From NCBI GenBank assembly GCA_965178125.1, contig OZ237739.1, positions 310,001-374,000 on the forward strand: a stretch of DNA of 64,000 nucleotides, read 5' to 3'. The notes below the pieces were generated by a model. The model had not been told where the DNA came from. It was given only the letters and a program-made list of their open reading frames with translations, and searched no databases. The DNA is from Bilabrum cf. latius (Eukaryota). The position numbers and the translations under genes were made by a program. Position 1 is the stretch's first letter, and each line of letters begins with the position of its first letter. This document shows positions 1 to 64,000 of the stretch, one piece after another.

Positions 1-486
1 GATGATGTTGATAGTGCTGAAGAATCATCTGATGAAGAAGAGGGCGAAGACAGCCAGAAGTCTGGCGAGAAGGGGGCACCGAGGGGCAGACGGGATCGGC
101 TCAGGAAAGGAGAGCTGAAGATGGTCCTGTTGGTTCGTCAAGACCTGAAAATGTCCCCAGGAAAGGTTGCGGCGCAGTGTAGTCACGCGAGCCTGGGTGC
201 CTACCGGCATGCGATGCGAAGCCCGAGGACGGCAAGGCACGTGGAGGCATGGATCCGCCGCGGGCAGGCCAAGATTGTCTTGAAGGTGAAGAACAAGAAG
301 AAGATGGACGCCGTCAAGAAGGAACTGGACGAGGCGGGCCACCCGACGTATGTGGTGGAGGACGCGGGCAGGACCGAGGTGGAGCCTGGGAGCGAGACGG
401 TGATGGCGGTGGGGCCAGCCTTCGTTGACGAGCTCGACAAGATCACGGGCAGGGACGGGAGCCACAAGCTGTCCCTGTTCCGATGA
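1..486 (+). CDS. PTH2: Peptidyl-tRNA hydrolase 2 (Pth2/Bit1 family), 5'-partial
   Basis: The frame is open from base 1 (acidic linker DDVDSAEESSDEEE...). It then shows the Pth2 motifs KMVLLVRQDLKMSPGKVAAQCSHA, GQAKIVLK and VEDAGRTEVEPGSETVMAVGP. It ends TGA (484-486), immediately followed by TAA. Confidence 0.95.
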   Translation, partial: DDVDSAEESSDEEEGEDSQKSGEKGAPRGRRDRLRKGELKMVLLVRQDLKMSPGKVAAQCSHASLGAYRHAMRSPRTARHVEAWIRRGQAKIVLKVKNKKKMDAVKKELDEAGHPTYVVEDAGRTEVEPGSETVMAVGPAFVDELDKITGRDGSHKLSLFR

Positions 487-658
487 TAAAACAGTCGCTG
501 AGATTTTGACTTTTAGCGACGTGTATGGGAAATGCCAGATGCCAGGGCGGCAGATGCCAGGGCGGCAGAAGTAGGTGGGGCCGGGGGCCGCGGGCCGGTC
601 ACTGGGCCAAGCACTGAGCATGCACACGTTTTAAATCTATGCGTCTTCGTGCAAGTCC

Positions 659-1878
659 TTATCCTACGGCCTACTAGGCACACACACCCACAGGCACCGC
701 CGACACACTCACCCCCACCCCCACCATGCACGCACACGCCAGCACGAGCAGCAGGAGTACCCCGACCCCAAGGAGGCATACCACTGGCACCTCCACAACT
801 GCCTATTCCTCATTTCCTTTCCTGCCGAAGCACGAGGCTGACCAAAACCAAGACGGGGGCGGGCGAGCAACGAGCACTTGCTCCGGCTGCAACGGCTCCG
901 TGACCGGCAGACCCACGCTGGACTTGGTGCCAAAGGCCGGCCTGCCCCCACCTGCTTGCAGCCTGAGGGGGCGTTCCCTGCGGCGCTGCAGCTCGTGAAA
1001 TAAATCCCTGCACATGGGCAGCGATAGCTTGGGCCCTGCCGTGCGGAAGAAATCGGACAGGTCCGCGGGCCCCGGGGTCATCGTCGACTCGGATCTGTTC
1101 GTTCCATCCCCCGATGTAGGCTGCCTCCGGGACCGGCTCCGGCTTCGATTGCTTGTTTTCTAGCCACCAGATGGGGATGGCTGCTATGAGTCGGTCGATC
1201 GGCCTCTCTTCAAGTTGGGCCCTCTGCCGCCGCCCCTACTAGTACTCTCCTGCGAGTGCTCGGCCGCTGGCGGCAACCGAACGAGCGCATGGCCTGGCAC
1301 CGGAGCCATGCCGCAGTCTTGCTCGTACTCTAATGCCTACACGCACATTTCAAGCTTGTCTATCTGTTTTACTAGGGTTGCCTCCGGCGTCGCGCCGGCA
1401 TCGTACTGCGAGGGTTGCGGTGTGACGCCCCGGGCCACGATGGCACAATGCAGAGTATACCTCCAAAGATATCCGGTACAATGCTTCGGCTTGTACTCAC
1501 CTCTTCCCATAGCTCGATAAGCTCTGCAGCGAAATCAGATCCTGATGCGCCCTTAACGGACTTTGCAATCCTCTCTACAGCACTCAGCTCAATCTTGTGT
1601 TTGTCGCTGCCCTTGATGTTGTCAGATGGGGTTATGTCGCCACAGATCGCTTCGGCTATATCATGAACTAGAGCCATCTTCACGCACCGCTCAACATGCA
1701 CAGCTGGATCCAACTGGGGAGCAATAAATGCTATCATTACTGCCATGCGCCAAGAATGGTCCGCAACGGATTCAATCCGGGCTGGGACACGCCTATCTAC
1801 CCATCCTTGCCGCAACACAGTCTTTAAACCCCCAAGGAGCTGGATAAAATCAACGGCACATTCGATTTTGGCTTGCAT
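659..1878 (-). CDS. HDDC2: HD-domain 5'-deoxynucleotidase (HDDC2/YGK1 family), 2 exons, TAG read as Gln
   Basis: Motifs LKTVLRQGW, ESVADHSWRMA and MALVHDIAEAICGDITP. Intron 1406-1500 joins LWEE|YDAGATPEATLVKQIDKLEMCV*ALEYE (TAG 1337-1339). The frame continues to DLSDFF and on to the first non-TAG stop, TAA 659-661. The 3' end is less certain. Confidence 0.85.
1406..1500 (-). other. Spliceosomal intron (95 nt) in HDDC2
   Basis: GTGAGT...CTCGCAG; removing it restores the conserved LWEEYD motif in frame. Confidence 0.85.
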
Positions 1879-1948: not shown

Positions 1949-4900
1949 TCACTGAAGCCTGTGCCTCTTTCGGGCCGGCGGAGCCTCCTCCTCCGCGGCA
2001 GAGGAACTCCCTACAGCCCCAACTCCAGCGCCGGCACCGGCAGGCTTACCCACCGCCACTGGCAGTGGCGCTTTGCCAGTGGCGACGGCTGCCTCTGCCA
2101 CCACCCCGGCCGCCACTGCCCCTGGCTCCGAAAGCACAATCCGCTTGCCAGCATCACCCAGCTGCCGTGACCTGCGCCCACTGACACCGCCGCTAAACGT
2201 GGACGAGGAAGACGGCCGGTTGCTCTCGACCGCCTATCTCCCACCCACGCCCCTGATCGCCTGCTGGGGAACTTCAGTTGAGTGCGAGTATCGGCTGCGC
2301 TTCTGGCCCACCACGCCGCCCCCCCGAGCACTTATTCCCTGGCCGATGCCTCTCCTCGCTCCCTGCTGGGCTGTCGAGCTCGCCGCACCCGCACCCGCAC
2401 CCGCACCCGCACCTACACCTGCACCTACACCCACCCCCCCTGCCCCTACCCCCGGCCTACTTCCGCGAGGCAGCCCCGTGGAGACCGTGGAGGCAGCTGG
2501 TGGCAGCACCAGGCGGCCCCCCAGGCCCTCATCCAGGGGTGGTATGGACTGGCTCTGGCTCTGGCTCTGGCTTTGGCTCTGCTGCATGGACCTCCTCTGC
2601 CTGTCGTATGCCGCCGAGGGTGGCTCTAACTCGCTGCCCTGCGAGGGGCCAGACGATGAGAGCACACCCGAATGCGACTCCCGCGCAGTCGCTGGTCCGA
2701 TCTCCGCTGATCCGAGCTCCGCTGATCCGATCGAAGACGCGGAATGGGACGAGGCCCCGCTGGATGACCCGGGGGGCACGGCTGCAGAGCTCTCCGGTGA
2801 GCCCAGGTGACGAGTGCGCCGGCGGCCAGCGGGTCGTGTGCCGGCCTGCCAACGGGTCACTCTCTCCCCCGCCCCAGCTGGTGCCCTTGGCCCCGCGAAC
2901 CCCGCCACCCCCATTCCATGCCCCGTCCCACTTCCAAATCCCGTCCCGATGCCCACGCCGCGACCCCTGGTAGGCCGCCGCAGCTCGTCGTGCTCACCCC
3001 GGAGCACTTGCTCGGCGCGGCGAGCACCTTCGGCTGCTCGCACAGCGGCCGCATCCGTTGAGCTAACGGTCTCTTCTCCGCTGGTGTGGTTGCTGCTGAA
3101 CCGCTGCCCGTCTCCGTGGCTGCTGCCGGTGTGACGAGATTCGGAAGAGGACGAGGAGGACAGCTGCCCGATCCCACCCACCTGCCCCGCAGATCCAGCC
3201 GACCCCGCGGCTCCTGTCCCCGGTCGCACGCCACCTGCACCCAGCTCCATCGCAGTACCCCCGACGGTGCCAGTGCCGGTCACACCGGTGAGAGAGGAGA
3301 GCGACGCAATACGCCGGAGCTGTCTGCCCAAGTCACCACCAGAGGCAGAGGCGCTGCCCCCACTGTCCCCGCTGCCTCGCCGAGGGAGGCTCCCTGCCCT
3401 GCTACCAGAGGCGCTCACCCCGCTGTCCACGTCGCCGCCGCTCGGTAGCAGGTCAATCCCGCTCGCAGGCTCCAGGCCTGGGCTGCTGCCCAAGCTCATG
3501 GAGAGGCTGTCTCCCATCGACTCGGGCACGTGCTGCATCACTGGCTGCGAAGCTGAGCCCATGCCCAAGCCCGAGCCAGAGCCCGGGCCCGTTGCCCTCG
3601 CCGGTGAGTTCAGCCCGGCTTGCATGTCGTCGGGCGTCATGTGGAGGTGCAGCGCACTGCTGGATGACGACGATGACGACGATTGCGCCGCCTAGGATGC
3701 CGACGCTCCCGCCTCCTGTGCTGCTGCCTCTCCCACGGCCACGGCCACGCCGCTCGTTTGCCCTGCTGCCTCTGACCCCTTCCGGCTGCCTCCTGTCGCG
3801 GATGCAGACTGGGCCCCTGCAGCCCCTGCCTAACCGCTCGAATAGACATCCCTGTCGAGCGTTAGCCCTGAAGACAACGAGAACGACGACTGCGAGATGC
3901 CCCCCTCCGCCTGGCCGACCCCCGGACTCGCACTCGCACTCGCACTCGCACCTGCTCCTGCACTATGCGTCTCGGGACCGTGGCTTGCAGCGGGATGCAG
4001 TGCAAATGCATCGGTGGTTCCGGTCCAATGGGCGCCACGGCGTCGAGCCTCGCTACCGGAGCGCGCCTCGTGCTCGAGTGTCGGTCCGGGCCCGGACGAG
4101 CGCCCTTCAAGCTGGCGACGGTGCACACGAACAGATGGCGCAGGGACGCCTACCATGCTAATACCCGAGTCATGAGTATCGTCTTCGTCCTGCGTCGCGC
4201 CTCCCTTGCTCGCCGCCCTCGGCTGCAGCCTGCGAGCGACGTTGCTGGCCGGGCCGGCGCCAATCTCATCGCGCATGCCGGGCTGTGATGCGTCCAGGTC
4301 AGCGCCATCAGAGGCATGCGACAGCGGCTGAAGCACTGCGGACTGGAATTCGTGTCCTATTCTATCCCCTGAGCCGGACTGGGGTCGTTGCTGCGCTCCC
4401 GAATCACTCGACTGGCTGTACGGACCCGCACGTGAGCCGCCGTGTCGTTGCAATGGTCCGAGCTGACCCGGCATCTGCTGCTGCGCGTGAACAGAATGTC
4501 TTCTAGACTGACTAAATCTTACGTGATGGCCGCTACGCCGGGTCATTCCCGAGCTTGATGCCATTTCCTCGCCGGCATCCGCAACCACCCGCACACCACT
4601 TTGGCGTGCCCCCCCCACCGGTTTACGACCCGCAGCACCACTAAATGCCATATGACCAGCCTGTCGCCTGCTCCGCATCTCGGCATGACTCTCCGCTGAA
4701 GAAGCGTCGGCCACTGATCGCTGCCGTCCGGTCGGCAAGCCTGCTGATGCTTCTCTCCGCGATTGCAACGATTGCTAGGAGCCGCTTGCTGATGAGCCCT
4801 GCGGAATTGACTCATGGTTTGCACCCTAGGGGTGTTCCGGGGGGCCATCTTCCTACACGAAGTACTGCTCGAGCTGCGCCACGCTTGGCCAGCTTGCGAC

Positions 4901-6837
4901 CGCTTGCTGCGCGTCTCGCAAACTCACAAAAGCGACCAGAAAGCCGGACGACTTCGAGTCAGTTGGGCTCACTGCACCCGTGATTGGGTCTATATGATCA
5001 GGAACCGAGCTTCCGTCGCAGAATACCGCCTTTCTGTCCTTCAACGAAGCCATGAAGGTCGATAGCGGAATCTTGGATGCAAACTCATGCAGCTTGTCTG
5101 TAGAGCTTCCGTCGCCTTCGGCTTGAAGATCTGATTCTAATCGTCCTCTGTCGATGAAATTGATGTTCTCCTGCGACCCGTCCCCAGTAGAAGGTGCATG
5201 AGTCGACTATGGTCCCAGGGCAGTCCCTACGCTTGTGGCTGGCCGTGGTGACTCGCTCGCACCCACGCCTTGATGCATCGAGCTTGTCGATGCTTGGAGC
5301 GGCAGGCCTTGCTAAACCTACTACGCGTACTACTGAGAGCCAGCATCGCTGTTGGGTGCAGCATGGGCCTGCCAGTTGACTGCAGAAGCCCCTGGCATTG
5401 CCGCAGCGGGGTGTTGGCGAGCGTGGCCTTGCATCGATCCCTGCTGCTACTAGTACCCTACAACTCCTCCTACCATTGGCTGAAAATATACTAATTGCGG
5501 CTACGCCGCGTAAATGGCCGGCCAGGCTGCTGCCGCACTGACGGGACCGCTTACACCGGGCATGATGCCTGTAATGGACTCGTCCATTGATAGCTACGGC
5601 GTATGGTCAGGGCCGCTAACTTGCGCGGTAGAACTAAATGACGATGGTGCGGGAGGAGCCGGTGGTATCTGGTTCCACGGGCTTGTCGCTCCGGGCGCGG
5701 GAGCTTGAGCGGGTTTCTGCTCACCGGCCGCGCGCTGAACTGCAACTCGCGCCGTGGCACGCGGTGCGCCCGCCGGCTAATCTGCAAACTGGCCGCCATC
5801 GTCAGAGTTCGAGCTGTTATCATCCTCCTGGGAATCAACGTAGTCTGAATCAGAGCCGCTGCTGTCATGCGACGCCATGCCTCTTCGGCGGGAGCCCTGG
5901 GTACTTGCTCGACGAGCACGGGAGGCGCCGCGCCCGCCAACGGCGCTAGCACTGGTTTTCGATGTGCGAGCGCCTCGCTAGGGACGCGAACGGGACGCGC
6001 GAGTGGCCGCCGCTCCCCCGGTCGCTGCTGCTCGCCGACTGGACCTCGAGCCAGACGATGCCGCGCCGGATCCGGACGCCGCCGCGCTCCCAGGGTCGAA
6101 TTTCTGCTCAATGGCCCACGCAGTTGAATTTTGCGCTGCCACGGCCATGTTCTCGGGCGGGGGAACGAGCTCCACCCCCCGAATCCGAGTAGAGAATGGA
6201 TCTCGCGCCAACTGGGCCTCGAGGAAGGCGCGCATCTCGTCCGTGAAATTGACCGAGCGGCAGTAGTGCGCCTGCGTTACGAGCATCACCTGGTCGTGTG
6301 CCACTGCTGCTTCCAGTTCCGTGGTGAACTGCCCGATGAAGAAGGGCTTGTCGTGCCCCGGAAGCCGGGCCTGTGCCCGCCAGGATCGCCCCACGCGTTC
6401 CTTGCTCGGATAGCAGCCCACGAAGATGCTCTTGCCGCGGCGAGTCTTGGAGTACAGCTTGGTCTTTGCAGTCTGTGATATCTGGTAGCAGCATCCTGGG
6501 CGCAGGCCGTGCGTGGCCAGTCGCTGGCGGACCGATGCGATCAAGCGCTCGCCCAGCGGCTTGCTGAGCTGCGTCACAGCCTCCGGTGGAATCTGAGGCC
6601 CGGGCGCCGCCTCCGCGAAATGAATGTGCTTCGGCTTCTAGGAAGGAGAACTAAGTAATTCCTATTCCTAGCTTGTTATGCTGGACCAGGTTTGCAAGAC
6701 TGGCCTCCTCTCAGGAGTGCGACGAGAGCTTGCCGAGGAAGGAGCCTTGTCGGGCGATTTGCTCGACGGCAACTTCTTGGGCATGTCGCAACTCGCTGTT
6801 CCACGAACAGGTTCTAAATTTGTGCTTCCTTCAGATC
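1949..6837 (-). CDS. Very large low-complexity protein with one AP2/ERF-like DNA-binding domain (putative transcription factor); large terminal exon
   Basis: ORFs 5978-6577, 4853-5053, 3830-4768, 2234-3640 and 1949-2137 share one frame, separated only by TAG (about 20 counted). The frame ends at TGA 1949-1951. AP2-like motif: FVGCY...SWRAQARLPGHDKPFFIGQFTTELEAAVAHDQVML...SVNF. A splice acceptor (ttgctccgcag) lies at about 6838. Confidence 0.75.
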
Positions 6838-7004
6838 CTGCGGAGCAAAAATATCAAACAGTCGCTAGCGTGCGGCTACAATTGAATGTCGTTGAGCACT
6901 TGAAAGGTTGCAACCGCCTCGCGATCTAATTCCAGCGCCGGTCTTGATCCCTCTCGGAGATCGGCGGTCGCAAGGATGGTTCACTTTCTCGGCAATACTT
7001 CGCT

Positions 7005-8283: not shown

Positions 8284-11200
8284 ATGGAAGGCTTAAGCGG
8301 TCGGCTTCCGCGAAGCCCACCGAGACCCTCGCAGAGCAGGGACGCCGATTTGTTCCGAAGCGAGCTGCTCGGCGCCGATGCATCTATGCTATCATCATCA
8401 CTTGATGCTGGATACAGGCAGCCATTGTTTGCTGCTGTCGCGGGGGACCGGCGGCGGGCGTCCGCTGCAGCTGCCGACGACGTGCTGGGTCGGTCCGTGC
8501 TGGAGGCCCGCAGCGCCGAGCTTGCGGCATCAAAGCTGTCGAGAGAGCTCCACTCTACTAAATAGAACCTACAGAGTGCCCAGTCTCGCCTGGAGCTCGA
8601 AGCGAGCCAGCTGGCCGATGCGGCGGCTGAGGCAGAGCTCTCCAAGCTATCAGCCCGCCGCAGCAGCAGGGCGGCGGCCGACGCCCGAGCGCGCGCAGAA
8701 AACGCCGAGCGCAAAGAAAGGCAGCTGCACCTCACAGTGATCGACCAGTCCCGCAGCATACACGCCCCCAGGGCCCGGGCCCTGGAGCAGTCCCTGGGGG
8801 CGGCCTCCAGGGAGCGAGACTCCGCGGTGCTAGCGCTGAGGAGCGCACAGTCCGCCGCGCAGGTCTCTTTCGCGGATGCAGAGGCGCAGCGGCACTGGGC
8901 CGGCAGGCGCGGGGAGGCCGCGCGCGCCGCTGCTGTGCTGGTGCTGGTGCGGGCTATGCGGTCGGCGGAGCGAGGCCTCCGGCTGCGGCAGGCCTCGAGG
9001 GCATTCCGCTGCATGGCCGAGCAGGCCGCCGTGGCGGTTTCGCGGGAGCAGCTGCTCAAGGAACACGCCCGCAGAGAGGCCATGGACCGCGGCAGCATGC
9101 GCAGCACCCGCAGGCGCGCCGCTGCGGCCGTGCACCTGGCCCGCGCGAGGGCCCAGGCAGTGGGCGTGCTGCGCACCTGGCGAGCCAGAGCCTCGTGGAG
9201 CAAGGAGGCGCGGGGAAGGCTGCGGGACGCGATGCAGAGGGGGAGGTTGCAGCGCACCAGGGAGTGGTTCCGCAGCTGGCGCCGCGCAACCGAGGGCGTG
9301 GCGGCCCGCCGCCGGGCGACCAGGCTGCTGCTCGAGTCGGCGAGACTCGGGAGAATGCGGGCGGCGCTGTCGGCCTGGCGGAGCCGAACCTCCGGAGAGT
9401 GCAGGTCCATGGCGCGCCGGCTGCCCCGCGTGGCGCAGTGCCTCCTGGAGGGGCTGCGGTGGGGGAGGCGGCAGCGGTCGCTGATGGAGTGCTGGCGGAG
9501 GCTGGCGGCGGGGGCGGCCCAGGGAAGGGTCAGGCGACGGAGGGTGGGGGACATGGAAGCGAGGGCGCGCGGGCGGGTCGCGATGCGGTTTTTCTCGATC
9601 TGGCGGTCCGTGGCCGGGAGGAAGAAGAAGCTGGCCGTCCTCGAGCGCAGGCGAGACGGCAGGCAGCGGCGGGCGGTGCTGCAGGGCTGGTTCCGCATCG
9701 CGCAGGAGGAAAAGGCGCGGCGCCTCTGGAGCGAGCTGGAGGGCAAGGCGCAAAGAGAGAAGGAGCATCGCATGGCGGTGCTAGACGGGTTCTTCGAGCG
9801 GCGCCGCGCAGTGGCCGAGCGGAACACGTTCCGCGGAATGCTCGCGGCGTGGCTGCAGGCGGCGAGGGACCGAGCCATTCTCCGCGCCAAGCTGCTCCGC
9901 AGGGGCCGCGAGCGGAAGGAGGCCCTCGTCAGGGAACACGCGGCGGCGTGGCGAGCCCAGGCCGAGGCGGGGCGGCTCCGGCGCGCGGCGGCGGAGAGCT
10001 TGCGAAGGGGTCGGGCGGCGAGGGGGCTGAGGCTGGCGTGGGGCGCGCTCCAGGCCAGCAGGGAGCAAGGGCTCGCGGCCGCCGCGCGTGCCGACCGGTT
10101 CCGCAGCTCCAAGGGCGCCGCGCACAGGCTGAAGCGCGGCCTGCGAATGTGGAGGCGGGTCGCCGGCGTGCGTGCGGCCCGGCTGGCCGTGCGGAACCGG
10201 CGCCGCGCAGCCACGGCCAGGGCCGCTCTGGCGGGTTGGAGGGCTGCTTCCTTCGTCCGCACCACGAGGCGCCTGCGGGCCGCCGGCCGGGCCACGGCGC
10301 TCCGACGGGCGGCGGAGGCGGCCACTCACCTGGCTGGGAGGGCGCTGGCCGGGATGCAGAGGCAGACGGAGCGGAACCGGCGCCGCGCAGTGCTGCTCGC
10401 GCGGGTCCTGGCGAGGCAGCGGGTGCTGGCCCTGTCACGCGGCTTCGCGGCGTGGGCGCGGGCGGACGCCCGCGCGGGCGGGTACGCAAGCGGCTAGGCC
10501 AGGATGGCCGCGTGGGTCAAGCGCTCCGTGCTGCTGCTGCGGGGTGCCCGGAGGCAGGCCCGGGTGCAGCGCACGATGGTTGTCTGGCGGGAAGCCGCGC
10601 GCCGGTCCAAGCGGCACCGCAGTGCGGTGCACGCCATGCGTGCTCGCAGGGTCAGGGCGAGCCTCTATGCGCTGGGGAACCACGCAGCCGAGCAAAAGAA
10701 GGACCGGCGCAACGCCATCGCCGCGCAGCGGCACCGCAACGCAGTGCTCCTGCGGCGTGCGATGCGCGCGTGGCAGCGCGGCAGCTCCCTCCGCTGGCGA
10801 GAGAGGGTGGTGCAGGAGCAGCTCATCCCGGCCATCAAGCACCACAAGAAGATGGAGAGGTTGGCATACGCGGACGCGGCCTGCTTTTCGCTCTGCCAGC
10901 GGGCCTTCGCGGGCTGGAAGGTAGCTCTGGTGGCCCACAGGGAGAAGGGAATCCGCGCGACCTGCATGGCCCGCGACAGCCGCAACCGGCGGCACAGATC
11001 GATCCTTGCCGCGTGGAGGGCGGCTGCCCGGCGCACGGCCCAGGCCCGGATCGCCCTGCTGAGGGTGCTGGAGCGCATGCGGGCCCGCACGCTCTCCACC
11101 GCCCTCAGCCACCTGCGCGCCAAGGCGGCCGCGAACCTTGGGCTGAGCCTTGCGCGCGCACAGGCAGAGGGGGAGGGCACAGCGGCTCGACTGCATCGGG

Positions 11201-12459: not shown

Positions 12460-12510
<51 letters not shown>

Positions 12511-19588: not shown

Positions 19589-19951
19589 CGTATCAAAGAC
19601 CATTCAAAACCGACTGATAGACAAACAAATGCCAATCTAGTGTAGGCATGCGCTTCTAGCTTGAACGATGCCGCACGGCACAACTTCGTTTGGTGTCACA
19701 GTACGGACGCTTCGTGATAGGATATAGATCTAGTTTAAAGGAGACAAACCGCCAACGCACCTAGTGAGATTGAAGCAGTATGAATCCTTGATTCTTATGA
19801 TATGTCGATGGCTACGTGGTTGATGCGAGGCGGTAGGCGCCATGATCCAATCACTCCGAGTCTTCGCTGCAGCCGTGCCCACCCTGCACCTCCATCAATA
19901 GGTCATAGTCAACACATAAGCTGCACCACCGCATTTATCAATTTCATACCC

Positions 19952-23107: not shown

Positions 23108-23118
23108 GGCTCTTTGCG

Positions 23119-26567: not shown

Positions 26568-26688
26568 AGGATCCGATCAGATCCGAATTGGACCAGCCGA
26601 TCAGCGTTGCGCATTTAGCATTCGCTCGAGCACACGACACCGCGGCACAGCCACCGATTCATCTCAAAGACTTACCCATCGACTCTTT

Positions 26689-43600: not shown

Positions 43601-43797
43601 TGAAGTGTCGGATATTTGCGAGACAATGATCTGAATGGAGCTTTAAATAGACTTTATGAATCGCGTGTTCCCCCTTGTGCCTCGCTTCGATAGCGCGCAG
43701 GGCCAAGCTTTAAGCTCTGCGACCTCAGAGTTGGTTAGTAAGATGAAGACCGCGGCCGGTTTCGGGCCCGCGGTCGCCGAACTACTTTCGTGCAATT

Positions 43798-49237: not shown

Positions 49238-49335
49238 CGTTAACCAAAGAGCATCGACAATGGCCGGAGCCGCAGAATTCCGAATTATAGTCTGGAAGTA
49301 CGCGGTACAATACAAAGTGAATTCTGCCCTTCACC

Positions 49336-52475: not shown

Positions 52476-55400
52476 TCACGAGCGCGACGTCAGCCGGGTC
52501 GCGCTCACTCCTCGCCGCAGCATGTTGCTCGGCACACCGCCGCGCTGCCCAGCCAAGGATCCCCCAGTTCCTCGCGTTTGCTGCGCAGCGCCCACCAGAC
52601 CAACCACCTGCATGCCAACCGACTGCCCCGCACCGGCCGCAGACTCCCCCGCCGTCTGCATAGTCCTCGACATAGAGCGAGCACCCGCACCACCGGGCGA
52701 GCCAGGTCTAGATAGCGTGGATCGAGCCGGCAGGCGGGGAGCCTGCGGCGCAGCGACAGCGCGGTGTCTATCTCTCGCTCCAGCAACGGCCGCTGCCCTG
52801 TGCCTCCGTCGAGCAGCAGGCAAGATGCCAAGCTCTGCCAGCAGCTGCTGCGTGCCGGACGACAAGGGGGCACGCAGCCGGTCCAGCTGCTCTTCTGTCT
52901 AGTCGTGGAAGCTTCTGGACCCTGACCCTTTCGATCGCCCGCGGGGGCCATCTGACTTGTCGTGGCGGCGTGACTACCTATCTTGCTGCTGCTGCTGCTG
53001 CTGCTGCTCCATAGCCCGCAGAGAAGGCCCCCTGTGAAGCCGCGGGGCGCCATCGAGGCGACTGGAATGGTCCCGTGCACTAGCGTCGCCCCTTCTCCCG
53101 ATGTTGCCATGAGCCTCTGTTCTCGGCGCAGACACCCCGCCGGCAAACCCTGGGGCTCGAAGCGCGCCTCTCTGCGTGCTCATGCTCCGCCCCTGGACCA
53201 GTCGACTGGCCCGGCCCCAAGCCGAGCTGTGGGCTGCGGCCGGCAGCTGCATGCCACTGCCGGAGCGCCTCGCTTGCTGCTGCCGCTCGGGCTGCTTGTC
53301 CTGCAGTTCGATGGTGGTGGCAGACCCCAGAGCCACCACAGGCAGAGCTTTTGCAACCAGGCTGCGGACAGGGGCGGCTCTTCCGGCCCGCGTGCTGCGA
53401 GCGGTGCTGCGACTCCTGGCCGGACGGTTCCCAGCCGAGGCACTAGCGTGCTGCTGCCTGCCCATCGCGCGCTCAGCGTGAAGATCAAACCGAATCAAGG
53501 ATGCTGCGCTGTCATGACCAGCCGTCCCAGCTGCACCTGGACGCACTCGAACGGGAGAGCGAGGCGGCATGCCCTGCACCCTAACCCTGTCCCCCTTGCC
53601 AGCTGATCCGTCAACACCTGCTGCCGCGGCAAACGGAGGACTCACGCCGGGCCGTCGTCCACTGACTGGCCGACCGCTGCTAGTTGCTGACATAGCGGCC
53701 GATCCAGGCCTGATTCCCGACGCCGGCCTGGGCCTGGGCCGCGATCGCGATCGAGAGGATCTCACGGAGCCTCGCGCCGACATGTACCCCGGCTGCTGCT
53801 CCCGCTTTCCGTTCGCGTCTCCCATAAACCGGCCAAGGAAGGCGAGATCCTCGTCAACGGCACGCTTGAGCTGCTCCGCGTCAGACAGGCTCGGCCTGCC
53901 GCGGCCGACGTCCCACTGGCTTGCCGTGGCAGCTGACTGAGGCCTCCGCCGGAATCGAGGGGGTACCCCTCCAGCAGCGTCTTTGCTGTCGTAGACAAAC
54001 AGCTACTTCCCAGCGCTATCTTCTTTGCTGTGGGCGCTCCCGTCACCACCCAGCCCACGCGCTGATCGAAAGCCTGCCCGACCGCTCGCTGTGGCCCGCC
54101 AGCCGGGCTCGGCACTTCCCTGCGCGGCGCTGCTCCCGGCCATGCGGGGCAGGGACAGCTGCGGGACAGCGCCTGCGCGGCGGCCGTGCTGTGGAGGAGG
54201 GCTCTGCTCCGCGGCGCCGTCGCCATGCTTCGATGCATCGCCAGTCTCCCCGAAATGACGACGAGTACCGCCACCGGCAAAGGGAGGCCGCCCGTTGCCG
54301 ATCAAGAGCCGTCGCACGGCTTCCGCCTTGGCTTGCCTATCCGTGTCATGGTCAATGTTCGTGCTGTCGTCGCCCGCTCCAGAAGAAGGCGAAGAGGCAC
54401 CAGACGAGGCGACACCGAGTGGTCTCTATGCTGAGGAGGAGGCCGTTCGCTTCTCTTCCTGCGGCTCTTCGGCACCTTCATCGTCGTCGTCGTCGTCATC
54501 GCCATCACCAGCCTTTCCTCCACCCTTCGCCTTGCCCCACCACCCGGCCCCGCCCTGCTGCCCGGAAATCTCCTCGTGCAGCAGCGTCCTCGCTCCGCCC
54601 AGCAGCCGATCGTACTCATCCATCCTATCAAAGAGCAGCCTGCGGTAGTCCCCTCGGGCCAGGCGCTGGACCGCGCCCGCGGTCACGCTATCATCGATGG
54701 GCGGGGGCAGCTCCTCCCCCTCTAGCAAGGTAGAATCAGGACGCACTGGGCCGAGTCGGCGGCTGGCTGGGGCCGCGGCATGCGAGACCTGCTCGCCCCC
54801 TGAAGCAGCAGCAGCAGCAGCAGTAGCAGCATCAACATCAACATCACCATCACCATCACCACTGCCAGTGCCAGTGCCTGCGTGAGTGCCGTGGCCGCCA
54901 GCACCGCCGGCGGCGCGGCCTCCCTGTGTGGCGGCACGGCCCGTCCGCTGCTCCATTTCCTGCTGCTTCTACTGCTTAGCTTCCTGGCTCGACTGCAGCC
55001 TCGCCACCGCTGCCCAGCCGTGTTCCCCAACCTCTGGCATCCACGGCTGCTGCCACTGGTCACCCTTTTCGCTTCCGAACACCGGGAAAATCCTGCGATA
55101 TCGCTTCAGCACTTGTCTCTCGAGCCGTTTACGTCTCCTCATGATCAGCTCCCCCACGCTCGGCTGCGCGGGCGCGCTCGCGGCAGACGAACCCGCAGCC
55201 GCACCCGCTTCACCCTGCTGTGATGCCCCGCTTGCCTTGCGGCCAACTTCAGATTCGCCTGCTTCTCCTACGCTCCCGCTCCCGGTCCTTGCCGCATTCA
55301 TTGCCAGCTCCGCGGCGAGAGCGACTGCTGCCACGGAGCCCCTCTTGGGCGTGGCAGCGTACAGGCGTGACCGCGTGGCAGCAGACTGCATTCTAGTGTG

Positions 55401-56648
55401 ACGAGCGCGATCGGTGCCTTTGAGGCCGAGCATGGCCATGGTCTCTCCGATGAGTGCGTACTTGATGTCCCTGTCGATGGGCGCGTCGCAGGTCAGTGAG
55501 GGGCTCGTGTTGACTTCGATGAGCCAGGGCTTGAGCTTCGTGTCGAACATGACGTCAAGCCCCAGGATCTCGAAGCACGTGTGGCTCGTGTGCGACTCGC
55601 CAGTCTGCCCGCCTACTGAAGTGGCGGATCGGAGGGTGCGAGCCAGCCACGGCTGCGTGGCGATCAGCAGCTTGATGGTCAGGTCTGCCACGCTGGACCA
55701 CATCTTGGCCGAATCGTGGCCCTGGGACTCAAGCCAAGCCAGGAACCAGGAAATAGAGCGCTTGTTGCCTTCTCCCGCGAGGGAGAGCTCAGTGTTCTTT
55801 GTGTACCCTTCTGCTGACTTATTCACGGAATAGTTCGTGAGGTGCACCGTGCGATCTCCGAGATTTTTCTTGGTCGGGGCCACATATGGCACGGACGCAA
55901 GCCGAACGAGGCCATCCTCGAAGAGGTAGATGCGCAAGGGGTCACAGCACGTCACTAGTACATAGATTCGAAGGTCAAACTTGTATCCATCTATCAGCAG
56001 TGGCTTGGCCAAGTATCGCTACGCAACCATTGGGACGTCTGAATCTAAATCGGCCAAGTTCCTGGTGAGCATGATACCTCTGCCCTATGCACCCTGCGGA
56101 AAGTTATTGACTTAATAATTCAATTGAAAATCCTTGCTATATCATCAATACGAACGACCGGGGCAAACCAAGTCGGGAGTTGCCGTTGGTCTCACCACTG
56201 ACGGCTTCAGTATATAAGTCTTCTTGCTCCTGCCCCTCGCATCGAAGTTCAACCTGAATCGACCCATTTCTTGCGGTAATATGTACGTGAAGGGGTGGAA
56301 CGAGTACTCGACTGGAAATCGGGCCTTCATGGCGTTCAACGTACGTCCAAGAGCCGCCTTGTGCGCGATTCGTTGCATGCCAGCGAAGTGATTTATCATC
56401 TGGAAATTCTTCAGTGGAACCACTTTATCTGTTCCTATGCTGACGTCCACCCATCGCACCGAAAAATTCTTTGAGGTTTCGCTGCTAGACACTTTCCACC
56501 CGAGGGCTCGTGCGCAATCTCGAACTGCCGTATACTTGCATTCGTTGACGTTGACAATCACGCTGGGTGCCTTGCGTGTTTTCTCCTTTTTGGAGGTCGA
56601 ACCATCGTGGTCTTCGTCGCCTGCCTTGGCAGGCATTGGAATGTTCAT
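52476..56648 (-). CDS. Tubulin polyglutamylase (TTLL6/7/13-like) with long low-complexity C-tail
   Basis: QMINHFAGM, FHPFTYILP, YILKPSV|GA*GRGI, MVA*RYLAKPLLIDGYKFDLRIYVLV, VHLTNYSVNK and CFEILGLDVMFDTKLKPWLIEVNTSPS. Intron 56094-56195. Downstream ORFs join via TAG to TGA 52476. The start Met could be 56648 or 56636. Confidence 0.9.
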
Positions 56649-56787
56649 CCACACAGCCACGAGCCAAACGGCAACTGGTCATCATCCAAGTCCGTCGCAC
56701 GACGCTCTGCAGCACAGCTACATGCTACATAATATCAGTTGCGACTGGCTAACGTACCACCATCCGGTCCTTTACACGCAAAACCCA

Positions 56788-59700
56788 TCATTTCTTAATC
56801 CCGTACACATGCCCCGCCTCCGTGCTGAACACCAGAGACCCCTGGGCCTGCCCTGGGCCCACCCGCACCGGCGCCCCTCCCGCCGTCTCGTCCACCACCT
56901 TGGGTCCCTCAAACGGAGGGTAAAAGGCGAAGGCGCCGCCCACCGTGGAGGTCACGTTCACGCTCACCAGAGGGGCATCAAAGCTCAGCTTGAACCCGCC
57001 CCTAGACCGCAGCCCCCTCACCTTGGCGGGTCTTGTCGCGTCCCACGCAGGCAGGAACTCCGCCGTCGCGCTATCCACGTCTGCCAGCAGATTGATAACG
57101 GCGTCCACTGCGCCCATCTGCTCCAGCCCTCCTCCTCCTAGGCTGGGCCAGTAATTCGGGTTCATTGTCTTCAGCAGGGCGCCCTCGAACGCCTGAAGCA
57201 ACGACGCGCTGCAGTCCCCGTTGTCGCAAAGGCGGGCCGCCGCCGGCCACGCGGAGCACAGGCCGTTCTGAGGCCTCCACCCCGATTTGTTCCCCAGCGC
57301 CCACGCCGTTCGGTTGAATGCCTGCATCAGCTCCACGTCCTGGGACCGCCGAGTCACCACGCGCCCGGGGTACACCGGCATCGTGTCCACCAGCGGCGTG
57401 TTGTAGTTCCCGTACGGTGGCACCACCTCGCCCTCGGGCGTCATGCCGCTCGCCACCTGAGGCTCGGAATCAGACGTGAGCGCGAACGGCGCCAGCGAGT
57501 CACGCACCGCCCGCCACCTCTGGATCTTGCTGGCGTTCTGCATGCCGGCGGCGGCCGCCAGGTCAATGGACTGCGTCAGCATGTAGCGGGCTAGGCCCAA
57601 GTCGGCCGACACCTGCAGCTCGTAGGGCGGCGAGGGCCCCCCCGTCCGCTGGTGGCAGGACTCCTGACCGCATGAAGGGATCAAGTCGAGCCAGGACGAG
57701 TTCGTGGGCGACTGCACGGCGTACGACGCGTAAAAGTCCGCAACGCCAGTGACCCAAGGGTACACCGTCTCACGCAGCAGCGTGTTGTTCATCGTGTGCA
57801 TATACCAGTCCACGAGCGGGGCGGCAAACATGGCCGCGGGCCATCGGTTGCCCCAGTCGGTGTAGAAGCCCTGTCCGCCGAAGGGGCCGCACGAGTTCGG
57901 TGCCGAGAGCCCCTGAAAGGAAGTGGGGTCCGGGAACCCGATGCTGGTTCGTGACACCGACATGGTCACGTCCGCCGTTCCCGTGCCCAGCGAATGAGCA
58001 TGTGGCGAACCGCCCACGGACCAGTTCACGCCGGTCCTCAGCTTGGACATGTTGTACAGCACGCCCGCGAAATCGGCGTATGGCTCGAACAGCTCAAGTC
58101 GGCCGAGAGCAGAGGCGCCGAACATGTTGGCCTCCACGTTGTAGCTGCGGGAACAGAGAGGAGAGCAAGAAGGCATTTAACCATGCAATACCATACACAA
58201 ATCAAGCAGGAATTGCAAGAAGCTGCTCGCGAAAGGAAAGCAAGCCATCCACAGCAACAAGCACTCACTCGATCGTGACATCGTCCCGCCAGCCAGCAGG
58301 ATCAAGGTTGTTGAAGGGACCCCACAGCGACGGCACCACGCCGCCGCTCTGTCCTGACGCGCCGCGCAGGTAGTCCATTCCCACCAAGAAACCGTCCAGC
58401 ACACAACCGGGAGCGCTGCTGCCGGTTGCCCCGCCGTCGCAGACGGTGCCGTCAGGCAGCAAATCGATCACGCTGCCCTCCCACCACGCGTCCCACCACG
58501 CATCGTGCGCCTTGCGGGCCTCATCAGGACCAGGGAACTGCATCACCTCGGACTCGGCGAGGGCAGCGGCCGGGAAATCGTGCGAGCCCGGCGCAGGGGG
58601 CGGGGGCGGCGGCTGCGTCGGATGGTCCCGCGCCGTGGCTGCTTGCACCACCACAACGAAGTCTTGCTGGTCCTGATCACAGTTGAAAAACGAGACCACG
58701 TTCGAGGCGCTCACCGCTGGGCTCTGCGCCGGCACCGCGTCAACCCACGAGCCCGACGATTTCTCCTGCACAAGCACTCTCATGGCAAGAGCCACGTCGC
58801 GGTCGGACAGCTCCGGGACGGAAATCAGGCAGCCCTCGCCGCTAGTGAGGCACACCCACTGCCAGCCATCGCTTGCAGGAGCATCACCTGGTGCCAGATT
58901 GTCCGCAGGAGCTGCTTGCGAGTACCAGCCGTGGGTGCTGCTGCTGTTGCAGCTGGTCAGCCACAGCGTGCTCCCGTTGGTATTGGAATCCACGCACATC
59001 CGGTCATCCGATGACAGCGCGGAGCTCGAGCTCGGGTTCCACACGAGCTGGTCCTGCTTTGAGCCATCGCTGCCGGGCATGCTCCATGTCCCGGCCTGCG
59101 CTACCGGCTCGCTGCATGCCAGTGTCACCACAGGCACCATGGCACTGCTGCTATTTACGTACGCAAAGGCCCATGGTGCAAGCGGCTCATTGTCTGGTAG
59201 AGGTGCGAGGCACTGCGGGCCTGGGCGGGCGGGTTCGAACGACAGTGGGCCATCTGACCTCGATTCCAGCTGGGAGGTCTGGGCGTCAAGCCTGAGCTCC
59301 CGCACGCCGCGCAGCAGTCCCTGGGACGGCGTGGCGGATCCTAGCACAGCGGGCGCGTACCTCGCGTAATTGCTGCGTCGCACCACGGTGTACACGCTCC
59401 CCCGCACGCCGGCCCACGTCGGCAGCCCGTGGTCCAGGCCCTTGAACTGAGCTTTCGCCGGGCTCCCCGCTGGCACCCTGAGATCAAAGCCCACTTGGGG
59501 CAGACCGGTGACGCTGACTCGCGCTACAAAGGTGCGCGTGCGGGCCTGCACAAAAGACTCTGTGATTGAGATGTTCTCAGCTCCGCTGCTCGACGCCATG
59601 CTGGCGGTGACAACGGCCGGCTGGAACGACTGCGTGCCTGCTACGCTTCCGACTTCGTGCAAGTCTGGCGCCCCGAATGCCAATGATCCCACAGCGAGGT

Positions 59701-59980
59701 GTTGGAAAAGCCACCCGTCTCCTCCTTGGAAAATCGCATCGCTCCAAACGTCGTTCTTGCCAAAATAGGCTGCGATCGAAGTGTCCTCATCGCCGCCAGA
59801 TCCAGGCAAGCTGAAAACCGCACCAAAGTCTCCACCAGCGGTCAACGGGCCATCGCTTACTTGCTTAGATGGTGTGTGTGTCGTTGGGCTGTTCCAAATG
59901 CCAACATGAGACGAGGGATGGCCCCGCGAGGCACGCAATGCAAACAGTACGACGGCCACTGCTTGCAACTCTAGCCGCAT
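56788..59980 (-). CDS. Secreted GH95-like (alpha-L-fucosidase-like) glycoside hydrolase with a ricin-B-like lectin insert, 2 exons
   Basis: Signal peptide, then DGPLTAGGDFG, YFGKNDVW, AHDAWWDAWW, PSLWGPF...WRDDVTID|YNVEAN, LLRETVYPW...VADFY and FLPAW...LRSRGGF. Intron 58145-58268. Ends TGA. Confidence 0.75.
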
Positions 59981-60176
59981 GACAGAAACTAGACGATTGA
60001 GCGGCGGACAGGAACTCAGCGATAGGTATTCCGCCTAGCTGAAGTGTGGTATCTTCAGACCCTCCTGTAAATACAGATTCTCTATCAAAATGTTACGTTA
60101 CTACACAATCAATGTCAAAATCGGCATGTCGGTTTTGCGAGAAGTGACAGAGCATCTCGCCTCCCAAACAGCCTCC

Positions 60177-63100
60177 TTAGTCCTCATCCATCTCAAACTC
60201 ATCCTCGGCCTGCCCCACCAGAGCCTCCACCAGGTCCATGTCGCCACCCTCTGCCCCTGCCAAGGCAGCCTCCAGGTCGAAGGCATCGCCAGACAGCCCG
60301 CCGTCCTCGTCATGCTCTGCCCCCCGACTAAAGTCAGCGCTCCCACGGTCTGTACCGCTCGCACCAGGCAATGGCGGCAGCGACGTCTGCGACTGCTTTC
60401 CGGCACCGAAGGCCCCCCTACTACCCGAGGCCAAAGCGCCGCTCTGCTCACTAGACCTGCCAGTCGTGGAGGTCTGCGCCCCGGAGGCTTCGCGACTTCG
60501 TTCAGCGGATTCTTCGAGCCTTTGCTCCTCTTGATCACGGAGGCTCCTCGCTGCGGCTGCCAGCCCGCCCGAGTGCTCTCCCGAAGCCACCGACGATCTC
60601 CTCCTGCCGCCCTTCTTCTTCTTGTGCTTCTTTCTCTTCTTGCCGCTCGAGTCCCCGCCGACCTCCCCGCCGGCTGCATCTGCGTCATCCTGCGAGCTTA
60701 CTACGGAAGACCGCCTCCGCCTGCGGTGCTTCTTTTTCTTCTTGTCGCCGTCGGCACCGTCAGCACCGTCAGCCTCCCCGCCTGCCGCGATGGAGGACCG
60801 TCTCCTCCTCCTCTTGTGCTTTTTGGTGGTCTTGCTCGTTGTGGTGACCACCTTATTGCCGTCAGCGTCCTCGTCCTCCGCCTCTTCGCCGTCCTCGTAC
60901 GTGTGGTACGTGGTGGTGGTCGTGGTTGTCGTTGTCGTCTGAGAAGACGAGCCGCCGCCATGTCCGCCGCCGCTGCCGTCCTGGGCCAGCATCGCGGCAG
61001 CCATCGCGAGTGCATCCTCGCCCTGAACCTCGTCGGCGCCTGCTGCACCTCGCGCTCTGCCGCGCGTGCTTGTGCCCGCACCATCGCCGCCCGAGCCGGC
61101 AGAACCTGCGGACCCTGACGACGTCTCTCGTCCTCGAGCCCCAGCGCTCGTGCTGCTCACGTCGCGCGAAACATCCCGAGAATTCAGACCGTCCTCGTCC
61201 TCGTCAAATCCGTCTTCTGCGTGCTCCACCATCTGCGTCAAAATGTCGAGGTCACCGCCAAGCCCAAAGTCCATGTCGTCTTCTATTTCGCCGTCACCGA
61301 GCCCAGCGCCCTCCCCGCTCCCGCCTCGAGAACCGCCGGTGGCTCCTGCAATGTCGGGAAGAAGAGACGCCCGGCGCTTCTTCCCGCCCGAGCTGGCACC
61401 AGCGGAATCTCGTCCGGCGCCAAGGCGCTCCTTGGACGCTTCAGCAAGAGCATCTGCTGCCTTGTTCGATGTGTCAGCTTCCGCAGCATCTTCAGGAGCA
61501 CTGCCACGCTGCCGCCAACCCGCGCTGCGCACTGGCCCGCTGTTCTCTGCACGGCCCAGCTCCGGCTCGGCATCGACCGCGGGATCGGCAGCAGCACTGC
61601 GCTCACCGCCGCTTTGGTCTGGCCGGATAGGCGCTGCGTTTGTGCTAGCCGAGAGTCCTTCCAGCATGTCTGCCACTCGCTGGTCGTTCGCATCTGCAGC
61701 CGGCGACTCGCGGCCGCTCCCTTGCTCCTGCTGGCCCATACCTCCCATGCCCGGTAGGTCAGGCAGCTTCACGACGGAGCTATTTCTCCTCGCTTTTGAG
61801 TCTTTGCCGATGGCGGCCTCCTTCCCGGCACTCCCGGTTACGTTCTCCTCCTCGTCATCGTCGCCGCTGTCGTCGAACCGGAACATATCGACAGCGCTTT
61901 GCCGGCGGTTGCCGCCCCTGGACTTGGACGAGCCAGCCTCCACGACTTCGTTGCCGTGCGTGTCCGTTCGAGAACTCGTGCTTCCGTGCGTGTCTGTTCG
62001 GCTGTTTGTACCCTTGGACTTGGAGGTCTGACTCCTCCACCGCAAAGAAGCCCGCCGCACCATGGCTGCCTGCTCGGCAACGGATGCCATCGACCCGTGC
62101 GACTTGCCCGACACGTTCACGTCACCTGCACCGAAGAAGCCAGAGCCTGCCCCGACCGCACCAACTGCACCGGCTGGCGTGGTCCCCGCACCCGGTGTCT
62201 TGGGCATCTTGGCGGCCATCTCCGCCGCCATCTGCTCCTCCTCGTCGGGGGCCTCGTGGTCAGCCTCCCTGTCCGCGTTGTCCACTGCCATCGCCACAAG
62301 GTCAAAGTCCTCAAAATCGTCGTCGTCGCCATCGAGGACGATCGCGCCCTCTAGGTCTTGAGAGGCCAGCGAGCCACTCGCCACTGCCGCACTGCGGTCG
62401 CCGTCAGCAGCGCCTTCAGGATCACGCTCTGGCACGCCCTCGAGACCCATGCTGCGGTCGTAGTCCTTCTTCAGCTCGGCCATCTCGTCCTCGTCGATGT
62501 CGCCCTTGCCCTTGTCCTTCTCCAGGGCGTGCGTCGCGGCGCGCAGGTCGATCTGGCTCTGTCTCACCTGTTTCAGAAGGTTCGGTGCCACGTCACCAAC
62601 GCTATGCTCGTTGGCGTCGCCGCTGTCTGTTCGGACGCGGTTGGCGATTGCCATGACAGCGGCATCCACATCATCGCCCTTGCCACCCTTGCCAACCTTT
62701 TCTCCCTTAGCGTTGAAGCCCTCGGGCAGCACCTGGCTGCTGCGCTTGCCCTTGGAGGTATCCCCCCAGTTGCGGAAGAGAGGCAGACCATCGTGCGCCC
62801 GGCAATCCTCAGTGTTCCAATATACCGTGATCGCAACACCCGCAGAAACCCAAATGAGCGTAGCAAGAATGACAATAACGTTGCTGTCATACTGCATGTC
62901 ATTGTTCTCGCGAGACGGCAGCTCGCCGTCTTCGGAGAGATCGCCGACGTCAGGTGCATCTGCAGCATCGGGGATGGCCACGTGTGTGATGAGCAGAAGC
63001 CACGCGATGATGGCTGCGATCACAATCGGCAGGCGGGCAAGGTCGTGCGCGCGCTCGAACGGCAGGGGGTTCTTCAACCACGTGGCGATCGCCAGTGCAG

Positions 63101-64000
63101 TCAGTGCCAGCGTGCCGATGATGATTGCAGCCAGCAGCGACCTCGTCTGCAGGATCACGCCGCACCACACCACGGTCACCATCGCAGCTGCCAGCATCAG
63201 GACAAAGGCTGGCTTGAGCTGCAGCTCCAGGGCCCACTGGTTGACGGCCTTGAAGCGCTTGGCCTCGGCGATGCGCGCCTCGGAGTAGCGCGCGGTCTGA
63301 TCCTCGTTGGCGCGAGTTGCCTCGGCCACGATCAGTCTCTGCTTCACATCCATTGCCTCCCAATCCTCTTCCCGCTCGTCCCTGCGCATGCGAACGCTCA
63401 GGCCCCACGCCAGCGTGGGGATAAACAGGATCAGCGCGACCGCAGAGAAGAACACGCCAGTGATGTGCTCCCCGGTCCAGCACGACACCTGCTCGCACAG
63501 CCCCTCGGTCTGACGGAAGGTACCGAAGGGAAACCCGCACGTCCAGATCTGCATGAAGATGATCAGCATCGGCACAGGCAGAATCAGCAGGATCACGTAA
63601 GCAACGAACACGAAGATCTCCCACAGGAAAGGGTGCATGATGTCGCGGCCCTCCTCAGGCTGCGTGTCTGACCCCTGCGAGTCGTAGCCGTCTTCCTCAG
63701 AGTCCGTACCGGCGGCCTCTGCCTGCCTTGTCTCGTCCTGCGCGTCCGAGTCCGTCGATCCCAGGGACTGCATCCGGCTGCTAAACCCTGCGTTCGTCAC
63801 ACCCGTCATGCCAGTCACGCGGCTGAATTCCGAGTCCTTTCGGCCCTTGGCACCCCTGCCTCCCGTGGTTCCATCCTGCTTTCCACCCCAGCCTGACCCG
63901 CCCTTTTGGGGTGAGTCCAGAAGCGACTTGCCGTCGAAGGGATTGGCGGGACGATCCGCCTCATCGTCGGCATCATCGTCCTCGTCTTGCGAGTTGCTGC
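60177..64000 (-). CDS. Multi-pass membrane protein with long acidic/low-complexity tail, 5'-partial
   Basis: The frame is open from the window edge. About six TM helices include a C..CWTGEH loop motif. The tail is rich in D/E/G/S and K/R. Ends TAA 60177-60179. Confidence 0.75.
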   Translation of the reverse strand, partial: SNSQDEDDDADDEADRPANPFDGKSLLDSPQKGGSGWGGKQDGTTGGRGAKGRKDSEFSRVTGMTGVTNAGFSSRMQSLGSTDSDAQDETRQAEAAGTDSEEDGYDSQGSDTQPEEGRDIMHPFLWEIFVFVAYVILLILPVPMLIIFMQIWTCGFPFGTFRQTEGLCEQVSCWTGEHITGVFFSAVALILFIPTLAWGLSVRMRRDEREEDWEAMDVKQRLIVAEATRANEDQTARYSEARIAEAKRFKAVNQWALELQLKPAFVLMLAAAMVTVVWCGVILQTRSLLAAIIIGTLALTALAIATWLKNPLPFERAHDLARLPIVIAAIIAWLLLITHVAIPDAADAPDVGDLSEDGELPSRENNDMQYDSNVIVILATLIWVSAGVAITVYWNTEDCRAHDGLPLFRNWGDTSKGKRSSQVLPEGFNAKGEKVGKGGKGDDVDAAVMAIANRVRTDSGDANEHSVGDVAPNLLKQVRQSQIDLRAATHALEKDKGKGDIDEDEMAELKKDYDRSMGLEGVPERDPEGAADGDRSAAVASGSLASQDLEGAIVLDGDDDDFEDFDLVAMAVDNADREADHEAPDEEEQMAAEMAAKMPKTPGAGTTPAGAVGAVGAGSGFFGAGDVNVSGKSHGSMASVAEQAAMVRRASLRWRSQTSKSKGTNSRTDTHGSTSSRTDTHGNEVVEAGSSKSRGGNRRQSAVDMFRFDDSGDDDEEENVTGSAGKEAAIGKDSKARRNSSVVKLPDLPGMGGMGQQEQGSGRESPAADANDQRVADMLEGLSASTNAAPIRPDQSGGERSAAADPAVDAEPELGRAENSGPVRSAGWRQRGSAPEDAAEADTSNKAADALAEASKERLGAGRDSAGASSGGKKRRASLLPDIAGATGGSRGGSGEGAGLGDGEIEDDMDFGLGGDLDILTQMVEHAEDGFDEDEDGLNSRDVSRDVSSTSAGARGRETSSGSAGSAGSGGDGAGTSTRGRARGAAGADEVQGEDALAMAAAMLAQDGSGGGHGGGSSSQTTTTTTTTTTYHTYEDGEEAEDEDADGNKVVTTTSKTTKKHKRRRRRSSIAAGGEADGADGADGDKKKKKHRRRRRSSVVSSQDDADAAGGEVGGDSSGKKRKKHKKKKGGRRRSSVASGEHSGGLAAAARSLRDQEEQRLEESAERSREASGAQTSTTGRSSEQSGALASGSRGAFGAGKQSQTSLPPLPGASGTDRGSADFSRGAEHDEDGGLSGDAFDLEAALAGAEGGDMDLVEALVGQAEDEFEMDED

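Follow-up and report, generated by a model that had tools for sequence, protein, structure and literature searches.

Evidence for a nuclear genetic code with UAG as glutamine and UAA and UGA as stops at a GC-rich protist locus

Nuclear genetic codes in which UAG alone is read as glutamine use the same table as NCBI code 15, and those in which both UAG and UAA (together, UAR) are read as glutamine correspond to NCBI table 6. Here we analyze a 64,000-nucleotide stretch of contig OZ237739.1 (positions 310,001 to 374,000 of the forward strand; assembly GCA_965178125.1, Bilabrum cf. latius), which we call the window and which contains about 15 genes in total. With high confidence, we propose that this nuclear genome reads UAG as glutamine and terminates its genes at UGA (mostly) or UAA, and that a relative represented by a metagenome contig, L001, shares this code. 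The codon table has been described before. What appears to be new is the lineage, together with its GC-rich setting and the dominance of UGA among its terminators.

Decoupling of UAG from UAA in nuclear genomes has been described in few lineages, namely, Iotanema, Protocruzia, some phyllopharyngeans, a rhizarian, and Scotinosphaera (PMC5304391, PMC11687900). An earlier note on this DNA had named Iotanema as the precedent for UAG-only reassignment to glutamine. That precedent is sound, but the list was incomplete, because Protocruzia tuzeti and two lineages of phyllopharyngean ciliates are also reported to have undergone the same change (PMC5304391, PMC11687900). Iotanema spirale (Fornicata; Panek et al. 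2017, PMC5304391) resembles the window in that UAG alone encodes glutamine, UAA is a stop, and the organism is not a ciliate. It is an anaerobic endobiont in which the GTS motif of eRF1 is changed to GGS (PMC9161772), and its primary terminator is UAA (PMC5304391), whereas by our reading 11 of 15 genes in the window end in TGA, and the window has 63% GC. Protocruzia tuzeti and the two phyllopharyngean lineages have a codon table identical to that of the window, but the phyllopharyngean genomes have 27 to 54% GC, with UAA as the commonest and UGA as the rarest stop (PMC11687900), in contrast to the GC-rich, UGA-dominated window. The window also differs from these ciliates in being a 64-kb multigene locus with GT-AG introns of 89 to 343 bases. 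Ciliate genomes are generally AT-rich and have tiny introns.

Amoeboaphelidium protococcarum (Aphelida) is another nonciliate with a flagellate stage in which a stop has been reassigned to glutamine. It differs from the window in that UAA also encodes glutamine (PMC5304391, PMC6299283), whereas TAA is not a sense codon in the window, and Amoeboaphelidium genomes have about 40% GC (PMC10608142) rather than 63%. In the rhizarian exLh (UAG=Leu) and in Scotinosphaera (UAG=Ser), UAG is decoupled from UAA in the nuclear genome, as it is here, but the amino acids differ (PMC11687900); in the homolog columns of the window, glutamine leads every other residue by about 15 bits.

Its GC content and stop usage set the window apart from what is reported for Iotanema, Amoeboaphelidium, and the phyllopharyngean ciliates. 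It most likely represents a new lineage whose code variant was already known. A literature search, with subscription journals and supplements outside its scope, found no description of UAG as glutamine in a GC-rich eukaryote outside the ciliates and fornicates. We give about even chances to a more specific proposal, namely, that the code with UAG as glutamine and UAA as a stop arose here independently, in an origin not reported before, within a GC-rich eukaryotic clade of at least two species that are neither ciliates nor fornicates and that use UGA as the main terminator.

The GC content of the window is about 63% overall, with a range of 59 to 72%. Its genes are long, many are of low complexity, and they have few, short GT-AG introns. 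Recognizable products are a tubulin polyglutamylase-like protein (TTLL), a CFAP97/Hemingway-like protein, GH31, GH95-like, GT8-like, LtrA-like, and RING-finger proteins, an HDDC2-like exon, and an Fe/Mn superoxide dismutase (SOD). The flagellar genes and the spliceosomal introns identify the DNA as nuclear and its source as a eukaryote with flagella, GC-rich and poor in introns. In protein searches, the closest named relatives of TTLL were about 45% identical, and named proteins among the nearest relatives of TTLL and GH31 were only 40 to 50% identical. A protein-cluster search returned only generic clusters for SOD and bacterial clusters for GH31. The TGTAA poly(A) motif, which is green-algal, lies 3' of 5 of the 15 genes; this is not decisive.

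When TAG is treated as a sense codon, stop-to-stop frames of 2364, 2259, 1634, 1356, 1211, 1099, 1075, 949, 824, and 784 codons appear. These ten frames and an unchanged frame of 1273 codons, which is the longest under the standard code, make 11 frames that tile the window without overlap. Frame length alone is no proof, because treating TGA as a sense codon also lengthens frames in DNA this GC-rich. A statistic on neighboring open reading frames, computed over all frames, was noisy and nondiscriminating because GC-rich DNA contains many spurious long frames, and the log-odds of codon usage around TAGs did not discriminate, because the TAG-rich genes have weak codon bias.

Since frame length and the neighbor statistic were unreliable, we restricted the test to homology-supported codons: 2380 codons in six genes, all of them covered by an alignment to a homolog or to a Pfam model. 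The in-frame stop triplets among them are 12 TAG, 0 TAA, and 0 TGA, whereas the two off-frames of the same stretches contain 28 TAG, 12 TAA, and 80 TGA. By chance, all 12 would be TAG with a probability of 9e-7 under the window-wide triplet shares and of 3e-8 under the off-frame shares. Alignments run across TAGs in GH31, TTLL, GT8-like, LtrA, HDDC2, and CFAP97. The GT8-like protein, for which a homolog search returned only two matches, aligns with one of them (P0003) over residues 56-378 (E 3e-63) and 685-753 (E 8e-13), collinearly and in one frame, with four TAGs between the two segments. The LtrA-like protein had no match in the homolog search; the PF06772 match covers its residues 96-383 and spans the TAG at 25962-25964. 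Likewise, the PF13879 match covers residues 117-150 of the CFAP97-like protein and spans the TAG at 44173-44175, and PF03133 is matched by both exons of TTLL. In conserved genes that are expressed and spliced, TAG is read as an amino acid.

For the question of which amino acid TAG encodes, homolog queries were translated with TAG as X, because a search bias toward glutamine had to be avoided. Four TAGs cited in the earlier note, two in TTLL and one each in GH31 and the HDDC2-like exon, were all found on the minus strand at their positions (Table 1). The residues in homolog columns at TAG are mostly glutamine. In TTLL, the column at 56019-56021 holds Q in 119 of 120 homologs and in the TTLL7 and TTLL6 PDB chains, and in the ATP-grasp column at 56085-56087, 15 of the 18 best non-gap hits have Q; when all 118 non-gap hits are counted in the latter, 91 have M, 26 have Q, and 1 has C, the M rows being mostly animal TTLL7. 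In GH31, the catalytic-domain TAG stands in a column with Q in 126 of 138 non-gap representatives (Q in PDB 7wj9, A in YicI), and the second TAG stands in one with Q in 8 of 15 non-gap sequences (M 3, V 2, L 1, G 1). All 5 PDB sequences listed have Q opposite the HDDC2-like TAG; three are entries of human HDDC2 and two are other proteins, and the alignments have weak E-values of 0.29-0.55. Opposite the GT8-like TAG at 19304-19306, P0003 has Q and P0002 has M. For the four large columns (two each in TTLL and GH31), the log2 likelihoods add up to -4.2 for Q and to -19.6 for M, the next best residue.

The surroundings of the TAGs, which are rich in glutamine as well, lend independent support. Within 2 residues of TAGs there are 49 neighbors that are Q or TAG, against 24.5 +/- 5.1 under random placement, and none of 2000 random placements reached 49. 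The share of Q or TAG among neighbors of TAG is 0.11, like the self-clustering of ordinary Q (0.10). In these comparisons, TAG behaves as a glutamine codon would.

An orthologous locus was reached through P0124, an 80%-identical fragment. It lies on L001, a metagenome contig of 4537 bases with 57.5% GC, on which GH31 is followed by LtrA in the same order as in the window. The two GH31 proteins align end to end with 71% identity over 1129 columns, and L001 GH31 stops with TGA at the same residue at which the window has TAA (...PGI-TGA versus ...PGI-TAA). L001 has five in-frame TAGs of its own, four in GH31 and one in LtrA, none of them at a TAG position of the window, and the trait is therefore common to at least two related organisms. 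Both window TAGs in the ortholog alignment face CAG in L001, while the L001 TAGs face CAG, CAA, GAG, GCC, and GAC in the window, once each; the CAA pair is the one in LtrA. TAG is thus opposite a glutamine codon in four of seven pairs, and by our count ordinary glutamine codons face glutamine about equally often. The TAG/CAG and TAG/CAA pairs indicate that TAG swaps with CAG and CAA like a synonym. Judging from these frames, the related organism behind L001 uses the same code as the window. The gap between GH31 and LtrA is about 375 bases in L001 and 112 in the window, and the short repeat at the start of L001 translates, in the printed frame, into repeated SPGSSA units.

RNA evidence came from public sequencing runs. 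Eight runs from four studies contain at least half of the sampled words of 52400-60200; none of them is recorded as RNA. Two runs labeled as protist or algae metagenomes hold small shares of the stretch, which is no evidence of habitat. We compared contigs of runs X6, X7, X8, and X1 with positions 43700-63699; such contigs are blind to rare variants and transcript ends, and contig ends were not used as transcript ends. Contigs of X6 to X8, but not those of X1, show deletions with canonical GT..AG ends on the gene strand. Joints for the introns of TTLL and the GH95-like gene occur in all three of these runs, and three more lie in SOD; the TTLL joint (56092/56195), absent from X1, is the junction inferred in the earlier note, with exon 1 ending in V and exon 2 starting at GA*GRGI (the asterisk marks TAG). 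The RING joint (CT..AC ends) was seen only in X7 and X8, on spliced contigs with three TAGs. Since canonical joints are present in X6 to X8 and absent from X1, at least those contigs derive from spliced RNA.

Of 22 in-frame TAGs at 43.7-63.7 kb, 19 are on listed contig pieces of X6 to X8, and 8 of those 19 are on demonstrably spliced contigs. Letters differ at 11 positions, none of which is inside an in-frame TAG. The TTLL TAGs at 56085-56087 and 56019-56021 are unchanged on a spliced X6 contig, and all eight TAGs of the CFAP97-like frame are on listed X6 and X8 pieces. Retention of TAG in RNA, a check that the earlier note had suggested, is therefore observed on spliced contigs of X6 to X8, and splicing-out and RNA editing are rejected for these genes.

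With respect to the other two stop triplets, our own reading of the frames gives TGA as the terminator of 11 genes, TAA of 4, and TAG of none; the tally is partly circular, since TGA and TAA delimited the frames. When TGA is taken as the only stop, TAA in gene frames is confined to the far 3' end or to an intron or leader on the 5' side. Gene frames hold 108 interior TAGs and no interior TAA; about 26 interior TAAs would be expected if the ratio of TAA to CAA equaled that of TAG to CAG (109:590; CAA 144). No gene frame of the window has an in-frame UAA at a glutamine position. In this small sample, TAA does not act as a sense codon and continues to end genes.

The code put forward in the earlier note, with UAG as glutamine and with UAA and UGA as terminators, is thus one on which homolog columns, ortholog pairs, polyglutamine context, RNA retention, and the lack of interior TAA agree. 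Several points weigh against it. The evidence comes from 64 kb, about 15 genes, and DNA or RNA sequence alone, and it includes the partly circular terminator tally. The TTLL column at 56085-56087 is M in most (animal) homologs, and TAG is opposite E, A, or D in three of the seven ortholog pairs. The types of runs X6 to X8 are guessed, and X6 is flagged as "probably DNA" despite its spliced contig. Finally, 3 of 12 frames have TAG within their last 10 codons, with four TAG codons in these positions against about 0.9 expected by our estimate. This excess may reflect chance, a composition effect at 3' ends, or residual stop use of TAG, so an occasional role of UAG as a terminator is possible.

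A general form of that role would be an ambiguous UAG, read as glutamine inside genes but ending translation close to the 3' end in some mRNAs, in a manner like that of Condylostoma or Blastocrithidia. We consider this very unlikely. The four TAG codons near the ends of the CFAP97-like, RING, and HDDC2-like frames are what speaks for it, but they are a very small sample, and the HDDC2-like frame probably does not stop where coding truly ends. Moreover, L001 has a TAG 12 codons before TGA that is followed by residues matching the C terminus of the window protein, which means that it is read through into a conserved C terminus.

Less probable still is a code in which both UAG and UAA encode glutamine, as in the ciliate, Amoeboaphelidium, and ulvophyte type, with UGA as the sole stop and TAA rare through high GC. 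TAA triplets are indeed rare overall (334 versus 775 TAG, both strands), and beyond each of the four terminal TAAs, another TGA or TAA follows within 5-27 codons, so that reading through would add only a short tail. This reading is made unlikely by the absence of interior TAA from gene frames where about 26 would be expected and by the GH31 TAA, which follows the same last residue as the TGA of its ortholog. The idea that the TAGs never reach the ribosome as UAG, because they are in introns, edited, in pseudogenes, or assembly errors, has in its favor only the prior that stop codons normally stop; it is largely refuted and exceedingly improbable, since spliced contigs retain TAGs with no differing letter in them, homology continues across TAGs, frame interruptions are always TAG and never TGA or TAA, and the orthologous locus has in-frame TAGs at other positions.

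If UAG is glutamine and UAA and UGA are stops, a tRNA-Gln(CUA) would pair with UAG and not with UAA, by analogy with other UAG-only lineages, for which such a tRNA has been described as the only simple decoder (PMC5304391). Similarly, eRF1 would no longer recognize UAG while still recognizing UAA and UGA (PMC5304391, PMC9161772). A tRNA scan found no tRNA genes in the 64-kb window or in L001, and an Rfam scan of the window at gathering thresholds gave no matches.

The combination of 63% GC with mostly UGA stops is a different mutational setting from those described and therefore allows ideas about stop loss (codon capture versus an ambiguous intermediate) to be tested. In a GC-rich genome, AT pressure should not make UAG rare, and an independent GC-rich origin, if true, would therefore speak against the view that UAG was lost simply by codon capture. 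The code is rare and is so far known from only a few unrelated protists; such an origin, if true, would also add an organism that has been sequenced, for which RNA data exist, and that is a natural candidate as a host of giant viruses with the same code.

There are also practical consequences. Gene calling with the standard code splits these genes at each TAG, and the proteomes and phylogenomic matrices of this organism and its relatives will be fragmented unless TAG is translated as Q. A public protein, P0142, is 100% identical to GH31 residues 721-963 (27097-27825), and its last residue directly precedes the TAG at 27094-27096. Databases therefore already contain fragmented standard-code gene calls for this organism.

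TABLE 1 Features of the window and in-frame TAG codons discussed in the text (an asterisk in a peptide marks TAG)
Feature	Position	Strand	TAG codons	Terminator	Remarks
TTLL (tubulin polyglutamylase-like) gene	52476..56678	-	7	TGA	2 exons; intron 56094-56195
TTLL TAG	56019..56021	-			MVA*RYLAKP
TTLL ATP-grasp TAG	56085..56087	-			GA*GRGI
GH31 alpha-xylosidase-like frame	26689..29988	-	2	TAA (26689-26691)	PF01055, PF21365, PF17137
GH31 catalytic-domain TAG	28480..28482	-			YTRWT*F; L001 CAG
GH31 second TAG	27094..27096	-			EGY*PAKG; L001 CAG
LtrA-like membrane protein frame	24102..26576	-	9	TGA	
GT8-like frame	17249..19603	-	8	TGA	
GT8-like TAG	19304..19306	-			MLV*PTTGS
CFAP97/Hemingway-like frame	43747..45660	+	8	TGA	PF13879
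RING-finger frame	46317..49166	-	6	TAA	PF13920; intron ~49081-49170
HDDC2-like exon, in-frame TAG	1337..1339	-			EMCV*ALEYE; PDB sequence alignments
Near-end TAG, CFAP97-like	45628-45630				9 codons before stop
Near-end TAG, RING	46335-46337				5 codons before stop
Near-end TAGs, HDDC2-like	671-676				4-5 codons before stop
2259-codon frame	36821..43600	+	18	TGA	No Pfam match
1634-codon low-complexity frame	1949..6853	-	20	TGA	
1075-codon frame	19952..23179	-	16	TGA	
2364-codon frame	8284..15378	+	5	TGA	Less certain
1356-codon frame	32346..36416	+	3	TGA	
Fe/Mn superoxide dismutase gene	50818..52082	+	0	TGA	5 exons
GH95-like gene	56788..60097	-		TGA	2 exons; intron 58145-58268; PF22124
1273-codon frame	60177..63998	-	0	TAA	Open at window end

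Among the remaining frames, that of 2364 codons is less certain because other frames are also long in this stretch of 71% GC. From 7818 to 15378 (68-72% GC), several standard-code frames are open for 800 to 1000 codons on both strands, namely, those at 8631-11621 (+), 7818-10325 (-), and 11848-15192 (+). A tandem repeat with a 45-base unit (six copies, 98% matches) occupies 23871-24141. It begins in the last codons of the LtrA-like frame, and the C-terminal peptide and TGA recur downstream in frame.

The SOD gene has GT..AG joints at very high contig depth in X6 to X8, and all four of its glutamine codons are CAG. It also contains a micro-exon of two bases, AA, at 51150-51151 (+), preceded by ...cag and followed by gtgagc.... 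Two extra letters, AA, appear at the SOD joint 51045/51389 in contigs of X6, X7, and X8, and the SOD frame of 222 codons is open only when the micro-exon is included; its omission leads to a stop at residue 69.

In DNA run X1, contig depth, when summed, climbs from about 20-36 to 305-2610 at about 49036-51036, and nearly all of the positions with differing letters are concentrated there. The region looks like a multicopy element. A 407-codon frame within this depth peak (49321-50544) had no Pfam match.

TAG is rare where the GC content at third codon positions (GC3) is high or where contig depth is very high in the spliced runs. The counts of TAG versus CAG/CAA are 0 versus 4 in SOD (all CAG), 2 versus 33 in GH31, and 0 versus 44 in the frame at 60177-63998. 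TAG is frequent in frames with a flat GC content over codon positions, such as that at 19952-23179, which has 16 TAG and 47 CAG/CAA. The scarcity of TAG in high-GC3 and high-depth genes fits TAG as a nonpreferred glutamine codon.

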